Below are positions 33,947 through 38,768 of a stretch of 52,997 nt of DNA, in pieces. Both the position numbers and the translations under genes were made by a program. Location: the NCBI GenBank assembly GCA_030041175.1, contig JASHOK010000038.1, positions 1-52,997 of the forward strand, given 5' to 3'. The stretch is from Thermoplasmata archaeon. GTDB lineage: Archaea > Thermoplasmatota > Thermoplasmata > Lutacidiplasmatales > UBA184. The notes under the pieces are model-generated. The model searched no databases. It was given only the letters and a program-made list of their open reading frames with translations, and was not told the DNA's origin. Position 1 is the stretch's first letter. Each line of letters opens with the position of its first letter.

Positions 33947-35644
33947 TTATGCGCTTTCCGTGCGCCGGACGAAGGGCCAGAGGGCGGTCAGGTCGACCTC
34001 GGCCCAGGTGACTGGCATCGGTACCTTGAGCTCAGCCAGCACCGAAGGTCCGATCTCCCCCAGCTCCGCCACGGCCTCACCGGCGATCCGCACCCGGGCC
34101 GCCCGCCCGGGAATCGTTCCCGGGAGCTCGGCCGGCTCCCGAACGCCTTGGGCTCCGAACGCCCCGAGGAGGTAATCGGCCCAGGCTGCAGCATCGGCGA
34201 ACCCGGCCCGTTCGCCCGCGAGCGCGATGCCGGCATGCCAGCGCGTCCCTCCCCCGCTGGGCTCGCGGGGGTCCGGCACGACGACCGGGCCGACGTCCGA
34301 AAAGAGCTGCGGGTAGGGGTACCGGACATTGTGCTCGAACGCTGCGAGGAGCGAGACCTGGACCGCATCCCGGACGCGTGCGTAGAGCTCGGAGACCGGA
34401 TTTACCACGTGGATCGCGGAGGTCCGACCGAGTAGGGCGGTGTGCCGGGCCGAGACCAGCACCGGAGAGCGAAGCTCCACACATCCGAGACCGAGCAGGT
34501 ACCTCCGGACCTGCCGACGATAGCGCGTCTCTGCGAGGCGTCGGCCTCGGGTGGCGCTCGAGGAGAGCAGTGACTCCTCCGGAAGAATGCCCCGGACGTC
34601 CAGCACCTCTTCGGTCAGGTCGACCGAGGTCTGCAGGTCGGGCCGCCACGGCGGCGTCGCCACCCACCATCCATCGGCGGCCTTGGTCGCGGCAAGCCGG
34701 GCGCGCCCAAGGAACCCCTCCACGTCGGAATCCGGCAGCGCGAGGCCGGCCAGGTCCCGAAGGGTTGAGGCGGTGAACGGCAAGCGTCGGGCAGAAATCC
34801 AATCGAGGCCGGAGTCGGCGTGATCCGGATATTCCACCCGGAGGGGCCGGAGGGACCAGCCCCGAGCCACGAAGGGCAGGAGCATCAACCCGACGGCTTC
34901 CTCGACTCGGGTGGCCCGGGTTCCCGTGGACTCGAGCAGCAGCTCCCGATCGCCGATCCGTATCTCGCCGGCGTTCCGGCTGTTCAGAATCGGGGGAAGA
35001 CTCAAGATCTCGCCCTCGGCGTCGCGAAGCGTGAGGCACTCGCCGTTCGATCGCCCGAGGCGGCCGTACTTCTGGGCCATGCTGTGCTCGGCGAAGAAGC
35101 GGGGCCCGTCCACTTCGGCCGCGCCGTCCAGCGGAGTGAAGCGGACGCCTTCCACCGGTTCGAGCGCGTACCGGACCGGTGGCCGGAGCCGCTCCCAAGG
35201 GTACAGCCCGAGGCTGGCGGCCCGGCGATCCAGACCGATGGTCGCGTGAAGCACCTCTTGGAACCGAATGGCTTCGGCGTACAGCCCCGCGTCCAGTGCT
35301 ACCCCGGGCGGAGCGGCCAGGATCGCGCCGGCCAGATAGGGTCGCAGAGACCCGACACCGGCGTCGACGAGCACGGAGGGCCGGTCGAGCGCCGCCGTGG
35401 GCTCCGGCACTGGAACGGCGCCGGTCTTGAGTCCGAGGCTACCCTGCAAGAAGAGGCCCAACCCTCCTTCCGAGAGGAGGTCGAGGCGGTCCGGGGTGAC
35501 CTCGATCGTCAGGGCGTCCTCGGTCCACTCCTTCAACTCGGCCTTGGAGCGGAACAGCTGTTCTTCGAGCTCAGTGCGGCCGAGCGGTTCGCCCACCATC
35601 TCGAGGACCCGATTCGCTGAGAGCACGCTCTGCGGCACGATCAC
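33947..35644 (-). CDS. pheT: phenylalanyl-tRNA synthetase beta subunit
   Basis: [38 protein letters not shown]; overlaps pheS. Confidence 0.92.
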
Positions 35645-37173
35645 TCCGGGCGGCCGGTCAGACGGCCGCGGTCATCGAGGTAGAGGTCCCGGATGTCGTT
35701 GTACCCGAGCGAGACCAGGGCAAGACGCGTGATGCCGATGCCCCACGCCGCGACGGGCACTCCGATCCCCAGCGGTCGGAGCACCTCGGGCCGGAGCATG
35801 CCGCCGGGAAAGACCTCCATCCATCCGAGACGGGGATGGCGAACGTACCCTTCGATGGACGGTTCGGTGAACGGGAAGTAGCTGGGTCGGATCTTGAGTT
35901 CCGAAATTCCGAGGGCCTCGGCAAACGCCTTGAAGACACCGACCAGGTGACGGATCGTCACCCCCGTATCGCCGAGGATGCCCTCGCACTGGTCGAACTC
36001 GACGTGGTGCCGGGCGTCGAGGGCATCGGGCCGGAAGTTCCGGCCGATGCAGTACATCCGGAACGGCGGCTCGGGCTGGGTCGCCAGGAACCGTGCCGAA
36101 ACGGCCGTCGTCTGGGATCGGAGCACCGGCCGTCGGGCCCGATCCCGGGAATAGGGGGTCCGCCACCCCGGAGAGACTGGCAGGCGTTCCCCCGGCATCG
36201 GCCGCCCCTCGTGGGCCGCCGCCACTCGTTCGACGAGCTCCCCCGGCAGGGGAGCGCCGGGCGGCGAGTTGACGAAGAACATGTCGTGGACCGACCTCGC
36301 GGGGTGTTCCTGGGGCATGTTGAGAACGTCCGCGTTCCAGAACTCGGTCTCGAGGAGAGGTCCCTCCGCCTCCTGAAAGCCCAGCCCAACGAGGATGTCC
36401 TCCACTTCCTCGATCCAGGCGAGGTACGGATGCGGCCGAGCCCCCTGGAGATACGGTACCGTAGCTCGGACATCGTACGGTCGGAAGGAGACGTGGGCCC
36501 ACTCCTCCGACCCGAGCAGGGTGGGGGTGAGAGCGCCGACCAACGGCTGGCCGGCCTTGGGCAGCGGAAGGGCGAGGCCCTCGGGAGAGGGCAACCAGCG
36601 CCGGACCGAGTGTCGCTCCAGCAGGACCAGGCCCCGGCGCTGCAGCTGAGCCAGGACGCTCTCGTCGACCTCCTTGGCACCGGTCGCAACCGCCTGCAGG
36701 ACCTGCTCCTCGGGAAATGGACTGTCCACGTCGGGCCGGGGCTCCGCCCATCGGAACGGGACGCCCTCCGCCAGGAAGTGATGCCTGCGCAGATAGCCGA
36801 TCGCCGCCCCCTGCTCTTCGCCGGTGAGCCCTTCCGCCTCGACCTGGTCGGGAGTCAGGGTCCCACCCCGACGGCGTAGCGCGAACAGGAACCTGCGTTC
36901 CGGGAGCCCGCGCGCCCGGGCCTCCTCCCCGCGATGGGTAAGCTTGCGCTCGACCCACGCGTCTTCCGAAACGAGAACGAGGCCCTTGGAACGGAGCCGC
37001 TCCAGGCTTCCCCGGAGCGCGTCCGTTGGAAGTCCCGTCCGCTCGGCCAACGCGGAGTCCTCCTGCAGGACGTGCGGCGCGGCTCGCAAGGCCTCGAGAA
37101 CCACGCGCTCGGGTCCCGACAGCGAGAGCGCAGCGGAGGGGTCCGGCGGGGGCGGGTTCTCCTCGTCGGGCAC
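35641..37173 (-). CDS. pheS: phenylalanyl-tRNA synthetase alpha subunit
   Basis: FWNADVL.MPQEHPARS.HD, LRSQTT, RNFRPD, EFDQCEG, YFPFTEPS, GMLRPEV; start placed at GTG about 25 nt from the TATA. Confidence 0.96.
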   Translation of the reverse strand: MPDEENPPPPDPSAALSLSGPERVVLEALRAAPHVLQEDSALAERTGLPTDALRGSLERLRSKGLVLVSEDAWVERKLTHRGEEARARGLPERRFLFALRRRGGTLTPDQVEAEGLTGEEQGAAIGYLRRHHFLAEGVPFRWAEPRPDVDSPFPEEQVLQAVATGAKEVDESVLAQLQRRGLVLLERHSVRRWLPSPEGLALPLPKAGQPLVGALTPTLLGSEEWAHVSFRPYDVRATVPYLQGARPHPYLAWIEEVEDILVGLGFQEAEGPLLETEFWNADVLNMPQEHPARSVHDMFFVNSPPGAPLPGELVERVAAAHEGRPMPGERLPVSPGWRTPYSRDRARRPVLRSQTTAVSARFLATQPEPPFRMYCIGRNFRPDALDARHHVEFDQCEGILGDTGVTIRHLVGVFKAFAEALGISELKIRPSYFPFTEPSIEGYVRHPRLGWMEVFPGGMLRPEVLRPLGIGVPVAAWGIGITRLALVSLGYNDIRDLYLDDRGRLTGRPE

Positions 37174-37195
37174 GGCGGTTCCCAAAGGGCGCCGT

Positions 37196-37203
37196 CTGTT
37201 AAG
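37196..37203 (-). promoter_or_regulatory. TATA-like box of the pheST operon
   Basis: CTTAACAG on the minus strand, preceded by CCAAACC, about 25 nt upstream of GTG 37173. Confidence 0.5.
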
Positions 37204-37215
37204 GGTTTGGAAATC

Positions 37216-37344
37216 GAGTGCTTTGGGATTTTATTCGAGTTCCTCGAGGAGACCCGGTTCTCACCGTTCACCTTCCATCGGCGCCGTCAGTCGCTTCTAG
37301 CCCCACTCCGACTCATACCGGATGCAGATCCTCCGGGGCCTCCT
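37216..37344 (-). repeat. left inverted repeat / inverted diverged copy of the tnpB 3' (omega-RNA) region
   Basis: Three collinear blocks shared with 38501-38621: AGGAGGCCCCG (11/11), GGAAGGTGAAC (11/11), GAATARAATCCCAAAGC (16/17). Confidence 0.75.
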
Positions 37345-38605
37345 TCTTCCTCTCGCCTCTCCGCTCCCCGCTCCCCTCCTCGGCCTCATGGCTGACTATC
37401 GACTGCTGACCAACGCCACCCTTCGATACCTCCTCGAGACCGGCAAGACCTCCCGAGGGTCCGGGTCCAAGTTCGCCCGGAACTGGGCACTGGTCAACCA
37501 CATGACCGGCCAGCATGCGGTGGTGGCCGCGGAGATCGCCGTCTCACTCGCTCGAGCCCATCGAACCCGGCTTCGAAAGGGAATCCCCTCTGCGATCCCC
37601 TACGTTCGGAAACGATTCCTTCGGACCAGTCCGACGACCTTTCACTTCGATATCGACACCGGCAGGGTTCGAGTCTCCCTGCGGAGCGGAGAATGGTGTT
37701 CCTTCTTCGTTCACGTCGCTCCTTACCATCGGGAACGCCTCCAGGAACCTGGAGTTCGGATCAAGCAACTCCAGGTGTCGGAGGACCGGGTAGCCCTGTT
37801 CCTTGAACGACAGGTTCCAGAACCCTACCCTCCATCGTCCCTGGTCGCCCTCGACACCAACGAACGGTCGATGGACGGGGTAGTCGTCACTTCCTCCGGT
37901 ACCGAGGCTACTCGGGTCGAGTACTCGGACATCCCGCAGATCCAGACCGTGCACTTCCTACGGAGGCGACGCCTCGCCCGGAAGAAGGCCCACGACCGAC
38001 GGGTGGCTCGTCGACTGCTACGCAAGGAAGGGACTCGGGAACGCCACCGGGTTCGGTCTCGTCTACACGTCCTGAGCCGACGGTTCATCGAGATCCTGGA
38101 ACGACACCATGCCGCTCTTGCCCTCGAGGACCTGTCTCGAGTGCCTTCACCACGACGACGAGGTCCCGGAGCTAGGGGTCGGTGGCGGGGACCCCAGCTC
38201 CGCCGTCGGCTCTCGAGCTGGCCTCGTCGGGAGTTGCATCGCCAGCTGGAATACAAGGCCCAGGACCATGGCGTTCCGATCTACTGGGTCAACCCGTATC
38301 GTACCAGCATGACCTGCCCGAGATGTGGGGATATTCGACGACCCCGAAGCAGGGTAGGGCCGATGTTCACGTGCGAGTCGTGTGGCTGGACGCTGGACCG
38401 GCAACTGAATGCCGGAGTGAATGTCGGACGAACCGCTCTGCGAGATATCGCAGAGCTCGAAGGTCTACGACTGGACCTTGACGGCCTTTCCGAGGATGCG
38501 AGGAGGCCCCGCTACCCCTTCGAAGCGTCGACGGGGCACGGGCGGAGCGGAGGGAAAGGAAGGGAGCGAACGCAGGGGGCATCGGAAGGTGAACCCTGTG
38601 AATAG
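37322..38605 (+). CDS. tnpB: TnpB family RNA-guided RuvC protein (solo, RuvC-III Asp replaced by Gln)
   Basis: RuvC-I VALDTN (D178), RuvC-II LALEDL (E269), QLEYKA, VNPYRTS.TCPRCG, CESCG, LDRQLNAG (Q361). Confidence 0.93.
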   Translation: MQILRGLLLPLASPLPAPLLGLMADYRLLTNATLRYLLETGKTSRGSGSKFARNWALVNHMTGQHAVVAAEIAVSLARAHRTRLRKGIPSAIPYVRKRFLRTSPTTFHFDIDTGRVRVSLRSGEWCSFFVHVAPYHRERLQEPGVRIKQLQVSEDRVALFLERQVPEPYPPSSLVALDTNERSMDGVVVTSSGTEATRVEYSDIPQIQTVHFLRRRRLARKKAHDRRVARRLLRKEGTRERHRVRSRLHVLSRRFIEILERHHAALALEDLSRVPSPRRRGPGARGRWRGPQLRRRLSSWPRRELHRQLEYKAQDHGVPIYWVNPYRTSMTCPRCGDIRRPRSRVGPMFTCESCGWTLDRQLNAGVNVGRTALRDIAELEGLRLDLDGLSEDARRPRYPFEASTGHGRSGGKGRERTQGASEGEPCE

Positions 38606-38640
38606 AATCCCAAAGCCGCTCAAATCCCTCCCGCGACGCT
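38480..38640 (+). ncRNA. predicted TnpB omega-RNA (scaffold overlapping tnpB 3' end plus flanking guide); boundaries approximate
   Basis: Position typical of omega-RNAs; nested pairings CCTTTCC/GGAAAGG, CCGCT/AGCGG, CCCC/GGGG; low-complexity protein tail after RuvC-III. Confidence 0.55.
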
Positions 38641-38768
38641 CGCGATTGCCTACGCACACACCGGAGATGCGGAGGCCCGTTCGCGCGGCCCGCCGGCCGA
38701 CGGCGGAAGGGTCCAGGCACGCACCCAACAGTCGACTTCCGCTCGTCACAGGTCGCGGTCGGCCCGGT

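Follow-up and report, generated by a model that had tools for sequence, protein, structure and literature searches.

The window analysed in this study is a stretch of 52,997 nucleotides from a Thermoplasmata archaeon (assembly GCA_030041175.1, contig JASHOK010000038.1), the genome of which, designated G000, is a short-read assembly of 98 contigs, 89% complete; contigs of this genome are given below as C numbers. Next to pheS the window contains a 1399-bp element that carries a single gene, tnpB, and consists, from left to right, of a left terminal inverted repeat (TIR), a 5′ leader, tnpB, a region resembling an omega RNA, and a right TIR (Table 1). It is interpreted here, with a probability of about 0.8, as a copy of a non-autonomous, IS903-like DDE-type transposon of probable IS5-family type, the sole cargo of which is tnpB with the omega-RNA-like structure, and which is mobilised in trans. 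An earlier note, made from the sequence of the window, had suggested a non-autonomous TIR element that carries TnpB and is moved by a DDE transposase encoded elsewhere, and this core of its inference is supported by the further copies and by the ends shared with a DDE insertion sequence (IS) that are described below.

Table 1. Location of the element, its parts and the adjoining features in the window.
Feature	Position	Strand	Basis or remark
Whole element, probably non-autonomous, 1399 bp	37219..38617	+	Limits of 93-95% identity with the copies on C14, C9, C90 and C73
Left TIR, TGCTTTGGGATTTTATTC	37219..37236	+	Repeat search; identical in 4/4 left ends of G000
CGTTCA(C/T)C motif	about 37262-37275		Equivalent place in all copies
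tnpB, 427 aa, TAG stop inside the right TIR	37322..38605	+	Open reading frame; Pfam PF07282 (Cas12f1-like TNB domain), 8.8e-18
Omega-RNA-like structured region	38435..38617	+	Overlaps the 3′ end of tnpB, stops at the right end of the element
Right TIR, GAATAGAATCCCAAAGCC	38600..38617	+	Repeat search and alignment of copies
Left 9-mer, GAAATCGAG, target copy of the pheS-upstream insertion site	37210..37218	.	Empty site on C4: GAAAACGAG
Right 9-mer, GCTCAAATC, unmatched with the left 9-mer, from another locus	38618..38626	.	
Remnant like the 3′ end of tRNA-Thr(GGU) (T-loop, T-stem, acceptor strand)	38620..38637	+	Flank, outside the element
TTAA box, ending 16 nt before the left end	37200..37203	.	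Box-distance scan
pheS	35641-37185	-	Left neighbour, Pfam; pheT next

Limits of the element and copies in the genome

A repeat search of the window found the inverted repeat that the earlier note had seen at the ends, with 16 of 17 nucleotides pairing between 37220-37236 and 38600-38616 (94% complementary); the complete TIRs are 18 bp long (T/GGCTTTGGGATTTTATTC). Further copies in G000, 93-99% identical, are full at C14:56819-58217 and C9:98-1500 and partial at three contig ends, where C90 has a left part and C14 and C73 have right parts. All aligned copies start with TGCTTTGGGATTTTATTC (window position 37219) and finish with GAATA(G/A)AATCCCAAAGCC (window position 38617), so that the edges read TGCTTTGGG and CCCAAAGCC, and the sequences outside are divergent. 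The termini GAG...CTC, proposed in the earlier note, lie 3-4 nt further out than these conserved ends. At the positions of 'GAG' and 'GCTC' the other copies read TCA, GTG and GGC, and CCGG, CTAC and GTTA, respectively, and these bases therefore belong to the flanks and are not element termini.

Every TnpB element has, 45-60 nt inside its left end and upstream of the start codon, a conserved and often doubled CGTTCA(C/T)C motif, which could belong to the leader or serve as a promoter element or transposase site. An 11-nt complementarity between 37266-37276 and 38578-38588 was dropped from consideration; it is present in the copies of G000 and G004 only, not in those of other relatives.

Target site duplications

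The 9-mers directly outside the two ends were compared in 17 TIR-bounded TnpB elements located on single contigs, one of which (G023 C20) is a 0.8-kb deletion derivative. The two 9-mers agree at all nine positions in seven elements (G000 C9, G007 C12, G023 C23, G023 C20, JOPF185 L063, G140 L083 and G105 L085), at 8/9 in three (G006 C2, G140 L084 and G129 L086), at 7/9 in one (L092) and at 5/9 in one (L097), and they are unlike in the remaining five (the window copy, G000 C14, G004 C21, G023 C29 and G023 C49). Direct repeats of 9 bp, at 8/9 or better, thus abut TGCTTTGGG...CCCAAAGCC in 10 of the 17 elements; in the copy on C9, for example, both are CTACGCGTG. In addition, six pairs of left and right 9-mers from different contigs or copies match at 8/9 or better: the left flank of C90 with the right flank of C14 (9/9, CCGGGAGGC) and the left flank of C14 with the right flank of C73 (8/9) in G000; L046 with L059 (9/9) and L033 with L053 (8/9) in G004; L045 with L052 (8/9) in G023; and C68 with C99 (9/9) in G095, the left flank being named first in each case.

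The matching 9-mers in the related copies show that the element family duplicates 9 bp of its target. The window copy itself does not show a duplication, its left and right 9-mers being alike at 1/9 in register. The pentamer AAATC, which the earlier note had taken for a 5-bp target duplication, is present on both sides as described (37211-37215 and 38622-38626), and its repetition is a coincidence, as the duplications of related copies are 9 bp long. Copies with different flanks and duplications of their own, which that note had recommended looking for, were found both in G000 and in its relatives.

A partner DDE transposase with the same ends

When G000 was scanned for the terminal repeat, ends were found on C5 and C55 besides those of the TnpB copies. 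The end on C55 belongs to a 459-codon frame, open at the contig start (C55:2-1378), the product of which matches the Pfam domains DDE_Tnp_1 (3e-16, over the cut-off) and SWIM zinc finger (1.3e-6). The TIR-like sequence GAATAAAATCCCAAAGT occupies C55:1380-1396, 1 nt past the end of this gene, which is the only PF01609 match in G000. A similar arrangement is present in G036 (L015), where a DDE gene is followed by GAATAAAATCCCAAAGCC, and the right TIR of the window equals both of these ends except for 1-2 bases. A degenerate fragment of a DDE transposase gene was also observed at C84:5275-5694; it is 60% identical over residues 312-453 and contains two TGA stops.

Homologues of the DDE gene are present in 24 of 61 related genomes. 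One of them constitutes a complete IS: the 1746-bp contig C141 of G017 (L014) has GGCTTTGGGAT at both ends around a DDE gene with 52% identity. The C55 protein aligns from residue 91 of the open frame of L014, and C55 therefore lacks little more than the left end. A transposase bounded by the same TIR, another of the checks proposed in the earlier note, is accordingly found with both ends on L014 and with one end each on C55 and L015. For more distant DDE homologues (L016-L022), no terminal repeat was found with the patterns used. The best NCBIfam model for the C55 protein is IS5_2, with 120 bits against a cut-off of 140. A tblastn search against plasmids matched 733 records, in which all named matches are IS5-family transposases, including those of IS903B, ISAba10 and ISEc28, at 24-28% identity.

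The tnpB of the element is a lone gene, as the earlier note had stated: neither a Y1 transposase (PF01797) nor a serine recombinase (PF00239) is matched in the 89%-complete G000, while control genomes are positive (six for PF01797). All PF07282 matches in G000 belong to this element family. Among the loci analysed, 48 carry TnpB, 22 carry the DDE gene and none carries both, and there is no DDE match in 20 further regions. Shared ends, combined with the location of TnpB and the DDE gene on separate loci, are the hallmark of a non-autonomous element that is mobilised in trans.

TnpB and the omega-RNA-like structure

The best NCBIfam model for the TnpB protein is guided_TnpB (95.5 bits, slightly below the cut-off of 100), and its matches in PDB are TnpB and Cas12f proteins. 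The residues of the RuvC triad (D178, E269 and D359) and of the zinc finger (C332, C335, C351 and C354) are invariant in nine homologues of 38-69% identity, and the D-E-D triad and the zinc finger of TnpB are intact.

In the last 240 nt of 14 elements, conservation of the DNA is far above that of the proteins. RNAalifold, applied to the alignment of the 14 right ends, predicts 55 base pairs, of which 16 have compensatory changes, and GGGA at 38562-38565 pairs with UCCC at 38608-38611 in the right TIR. Pairing is possible in 96.3% of cells, compared to 39-53% when partners are slid by 1-3 columns, and none of 500 shuffles reaches the observed values; since the structure was derived from the same alignment, this test favours the structure somewhat. 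A search of Rfam with 37150-38750 gave no match at E <= 1. An omega RNA would be expected to have this appearance, a covarying structure extending up to the exact right end of the element. Immediately 5′ of the duplication, where a target-adjacent motif (TAM) would lie, the four bases are T-rich and variable in the left-flank rows.

Distribution among relatives

Of 121 genomes in the family, 35 contain the 17-nt repeat when at most two mismatches are allowed; there are about 110 matches, versus 7 for a backwards control, and the TIR pattern is present in genera g1, g5 and g6. The hosts are Thermoplasmata, represented by metagenome-assembled genomes (MAGs). TIR-bounded TnpB elements were found in G000, G004, G006, G007, G023, G105, G129, G133 and G140. 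Four of these genomes (G140, G105, G129 and G133) represent another genus, in which the repeat bounds TnpB elements of 1.42-1.48 kb that are 53-56% identical.

The same repeats also enclose short elements resembling miniature inverted-repeat transposable elements, of 50 bp (L101), 378 bp (L087) and 1052 bp (L091), and a 2874-bp element (L088) without a TnpB or DDE match. Conversely, TnpBs 49-50% identical to that of the window (L045 and L052 in G023, L037 on G025:C46 and L038 on G010:C42) are located between other repeats, namely GGCTTTGAATCAAAA and a 24-nt repeat, GGGTTCTGTCCCAGATTCGGGCCG (GGGTTCTGTCC...), the latter with no visible duplication. The nuclease has apparently passed from one transposon frame to another.

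Insertion sites of the window copy

The first 164 nt of C4 are the same as window positions 37055-37218 except for one base, and are followed by GACTCAGGGG, comprising the stop codon and body of a gene for an 853-aa protein. This gene is the neighbour upstream of pheS in all seven same-genus genomes that have the pheS locus, whereas none of the seven has the right-hand neighbour of the window copy in this place. Since the synteny of C4 is kept in relatives, C4 is the true empty site, reading ...GGGTTTGGAAAACGAG-GACTCAGGGG, and it differs from GGGTTTGG-AAATC-CCTCCCGCG, which the earlier note had predicted. Read-level data were taken from Logan contigs of four runs of one study, in which contigs break inside the repeat; in run X1 the continuation of the empty site is also present as a loose end at 37218.

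On the right, the element is followed by a tRNA-Thr-like remnant (Table 1). An intact tRNA-Thr stands at the equivalent place in G004 (L105 1372-1444), directly beside a gene homologous to the adjoining one and encoding 319 aa; ARAGORN finds no tRNA at 38620-38637 in the window. The intact tRNA-Thr of G000 is located at C11:501-605 and is followed by AT-rich DNA. These positions suggest that an element has integrated at tRNA-Thr in G000, the remnant in the window being the far copy of its attachment site.

The two halves of the window copy come from two insertion sites, the left half from the site upstream of pheS and the right half from the locus of the tRNA-Thr-like remnant, and for this reason the copy has no duplication. 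On balance, a mis-join of two copies in the short-read assembly is the probable origin of these flanks; it is favoured over real recombination between copies because the copy on C14 shows the same crossing of flanks in this assembly. If the copies were mis-joined, an unbroken copy at the pheS site would read pheS flank, IS, GAAA(A/T)CGAG, GACTCAGG. The rival possibility, that the genome was really rearranged, either through intramolecular transposition or because two copies recombined, appears doubtful. It agrees with Logan contigs of runs X1, X2 and X3, which bridge the right junction from 38584-38588 into the flank, and with the T at 37214 in the left flank, a difference from the empty allele on C4 which means that the filled and empty alleles are different haplotypes. 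The crossed flanks of the second full copy, on C14, speak against it, as does the fact that, of the 12 elements on single contigs with a duplication, 10 match at 8/9 or better, several of them on long contigs. Furthermore, among the pieces of Logan contigs listed for the four runs, none was seen to span the whole copy with both window flanks or to bridge the left junction (37218/37219), and neither of the reciprocal junctions was found.

Copies of the 1.4-kb repeat are located at the ends of several contigs of G000 (C14, C9, C73, C90 and C81), and in this genome two of the three full copies have, next to their ends, 9-mers that find their counterparts in flanks on other contigs. Such crossed 9-mers probably mark mis-joins of the assembly, also inside the window. 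For the annotation of these MAGs, copies of the element at contig ends should accordingly be regarded as a cause of mis-joins, the window being an example.

Placement of the left end near TATA-like boxes

A run of at least four A/T bases ends 14-17 nt before the left end of the element in 20 of 22 left-flank rows, two of which (L066 and L072) represent the same or a duplicated site. The background frequency of such a box is 1.98% of G000 positions, or 7.8% where an A/T run is located within 40 nt. The criterion, an uninterrupted stretch of at least four A/T bases with its end 14-18 nt from the left end, was chosen after the first flanks had been seen; all seven rows fetched later are positive (L083, L084, L086, L087, L092, L094 and L097). 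One of the two misses, the first row of L066, is a chance host match, and the other has TTCAAGAA at this place. L085, the end of which reads CGTTTTGGG, remained outside the scripted count, and by eye its box ends 18 nt away. The mirror test at right ends gave 3 positives among about 25 true rows, obtained from 32 by removal of three chance matches and four left ends read backwards. Loose ends of other left flanks in the four metagenome runs have TATAAAC or TATATAC about 15 nt before the junction, and in the single available flank of the DDE IS, on C55, the box is 17 nt from the end.

In 9 of the 12 left flanks with enough sequence, an open reading frame with a high GC content at third codon positions lies on the opposite strand and starts 26-90 nt from the junction. 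The divergent frame in the window is pheS, with candidate starts 33 and 45 nt from the junction, and the TTAA box beside it is probably the TATA box of this gene. Most simply, the A/T box would in general be the TATA box of a divergent host gene, with the insertion point just outside the B recognition element (BRE). The placement of the left end could result either from targeting by the transposase or from the survival of harmless insertions that carry a TAM. The TATA-like box was also considered as the TAM itself and was rejected, as it lies 5-8 nt from the duplicated 9-mer and cannot abut the guide match.

Pairs of element ends lying back to back, 9-11 nt apart, were observed at C5:1621-1665 in G000, G005:C64:9727-9770 (L088) and G035:C41:826-869 (L089). 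They are either insertions right beside another element or junctions of tandem or circular forms, and from them it seems that a resident repeat can likewise provide the A/T box.

It is conceivable, as a tentative extension of these observations, that the IS903-like transposase inserts the elements next to archaeal core promoters, with constant position and orientation, and that its target choice is co-adapted with the TAM of the nuclease. The left end would then come to lie 14-17 bp beyond the TATA-like box and outside the BRE, the divergent host gene would keep its promoter, and the complement of the A-rich BRE would supply 5′ of the duplicated 9-mer the T-rich motif needed as TAM. If this is true, the element would be a transposon that seeks out promoters and secures its own retention, in loose analogy to Ty3 at the start sites of Pol III. 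Oriented placement at a fixed distance from TATA-like boxes, if due to targeting, would be uncommon as a rule of target choice among prokaryotic ISs. The placement is possibly a new feature; a full-text literature search found no paper on promoter-proximal targeting by such an element.

Proposed mobilisation and alternative explanations

The non-autonomous character of the element and its mobilisation in trans are proposed because the same repeat ends a separate IS, with SWIM and DDE_Tnp_1 domains, in G000 and in its relatives. The DDE transposase would bind the shared repeats and move the TnpB element in trans. The omega RNA would be transcribed through the right TIR into the flank, so that the guide would consist of the 9-bp duplication and the flank that follows it. 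Guided in this way, TnpB would cut unoccupied alleles, in which the left flank gives a T-rich TAM directly 5′ of the guide sequence, and recombinational repair of the cut empty allele would copy the element back, a homing role like that described for TnpB of IS605. The occupied site would escape cutting because just 9 nt match beside the TAM.

Several observations weigh against this interpretation. The window copy lacks a duplication (1/9), and five of the 17 elements on single contigs have unlike flanks. Because C55 begins inside the DDE gene, G000 shows a single end of this IS, and the NCBIfam IS5 score of the gene product (120 bits) is under the cut-off of 140. G004 and G023, the assemblies of which are 89% and 91% complete, carry TnpB elements and have no DDE homologue at E <= 1e-10. 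The bases directly 5′ of the duplication are merely loosely T-rich, and no firm TAM can be read from them. Finally, DDE excision already leaves a double-strand break, which makes the benefit of a homing nuclease less obvious, a point raised in the relevant passages of a recent review (PMC13565253).

One rival explanation, which is unlikely, accepts the DDE-mobilised TIR element as real and sees TnpB as a mere passenger or as a protein with another role, such as regulation or defence, that contributes nothing to the retention or spread of the element, with the RNA structure at the 3′ end serving something else. The break left by DDE excision (PMC13565253), the absence of a clear TAM at the flanks and the many exapted TnpBs reported by Altae-Tran et al. 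2023 (PMC10691335) are in line with it. Such a role is harder to reconcile with the invariance of the D-E-D and zinc-finger residues among homologues of 38-69% identity, with an RNA structure conserved to the exact element end, and with mobile copies from three or more genera of the family having retained tnpB.

Two other explanations concern the type of the element and its limits, and both are very improbable. An ordinary solo-TnpB element of the IS200/IS605 group (IS1341-type) or an IS607 element, dependent on a Y1 or serine TnpA and with an incidental terminal repeat, would fit the membership of the protein in the TnpB family and its weak NCBIfam scores (46 bits for IS607_TnpB and 30.5 bits for IS200_TnpB, both far under the cut-offs). 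Neither PF01797 nor PF00239 is matched in the 89%-complete G000, as described above, the inverted repeats and 9-bp duplications found here are absent from both families according to the review passages on them (PMC13565253), and the same ends bound a DDE IS. The least credible is the anatomy of the earlier note, in which the element extends from 37216 to 38621 with GAG...CTC termini, AAATC is a 5-bp duplication, and the empty allele is the contiguous sequence GGGTTTGGAAATCCCTCCCGCG. It draws on the presence of AAATC on both sides and is contradicted by other observations: none of the other copies shares the bases that separate AAATC from the conserved ends, in related copies the 9-bp repeats stand immediately outside TGCTTTGGG and CCCAAAGCC, none of the seven same-genus genomes has the two flanks side by side, the empty site on C4 lacks the predicted junction, and the right AAATC lies inside the tRNA-like remnant.

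Comparison with known systems

With respect to the IS903/IS5 group, the elements described here share TIRs of 18 bp that start with GGCTTTG, the complement of the right end in the window being GGCTTTGGGATTCTATTC. The ends of an IS903B copy read GGCTTTGTTGAATAAATC, of which the first seven bases are common with the ends here. IS903 makes a 9-bp duplication; the one IS903B copy that was read has unlike 9-mers at its two sides. The DDE_Tnp_1 domain is a further common feature, and weak tblastn matches connect the transposase to that of IS903B (24.5-28.1% identity over residues 142-399 or 217-399). The transposase here differs in being longer (about 450 aa), in its N-terminal SWIM zinc finger, in its archaeal host and in an NCBIfam IS5 score below the cut-off, and the existence of a family of non-autonomous derivatives carrying TnpB is another difference.

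Compared to IS1341-type solo-TnpB elements of the IS200/IS605 group, the similarity consists in tnpB as the sole gene and in a structured RNA that overlaps its 3′ end. As described in the corresponding passages of the review (PMC13565253), those elements have neither inverted repeats nor a duplication, have hairpin ends and depend on a Y1 TnpA, and the element studied here differs in all of these respects; the lack of inverted repeats and duplications applies there to IS607 as well as to IS200/IS605. The eukaryotic Fanzor transposons with TIRs and target site duplications resemble the present family in carrying an RNA-guided nuclease as the cargo of a cut-and-paste element, with a guide RNA that ends at the right end, and in the portion of Yoon et al. 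2023 that concerns them (PMC10711439) their duplication is short, constant and built into the RNA scaffold. The present family differs in its prokaryotic host and in a duplication of 9 bp that is variable, therefore cannot be built into the RNA scaffold as in Fanzor, and would have to be a part of the guide.

The closest counterparts are prokaryotic TnpBs associated with DDE transposases, and in this respect the premise of novelty in the earlier note is out of date. The main text of Altae-Tran et al. 2023 in PNAS (PMC10691335) describes six DDE-associated TnpB branches (DDE-1 to DDE-6), all with inverted terminal repeats, and takes solo TnpBs with ends near-identical to those of transposase-bearing elements as cases of mobilisation in trans. 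The element studied here is similar to these branches in that a prokaryotic TnpB lies between inverted terminal repeats and in that no more than 250 bp separate the 3′ end of tnpB from the end of the element. It is unlike them in having a partner with SWIM and DDE_Tnp_1 domains, IS903-like ends and 9-bp duplications, and in that TnpB and transposase are never found in one element. The same main text names IS630 (DDE-6) alone as a partner and mentions neither Thermoplasmata nor an IS903-like element, and the partners of DDE-linked TnpBs listed in the review passages are ISL2, IS630 and IS1031 transposases (PMC13565253). A full-text search, which excluded the supplements of PMC10691335 that list the DDE branches, found no paper on an IS903-like or Thermoplasmata carrier of TnpB; the TnpB clade of the window may already be contained among DDE-1 to DDE-6.

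The family provides a clean natural case, in multiple copies, of a prokaryotic TnpB on a cut-and-paste transposon with TIRs and target site duplications, and both partners, the TnpB carrier and the separate IS bearing the transposase, are present in one small archaeal genome. The use of a homing nuclease to a DDE transposon is treated as an open question in the 2026 review (PMC13565253, in the part that deals with it). Here the variable 9-bp duplication must be read as a part of the guide, and how an RNA-guided homing nuclease serves a DDE transposon thereby becomes testable. This kind of system was already published in 2023, and the element in the window is a new, well-documented member of it.

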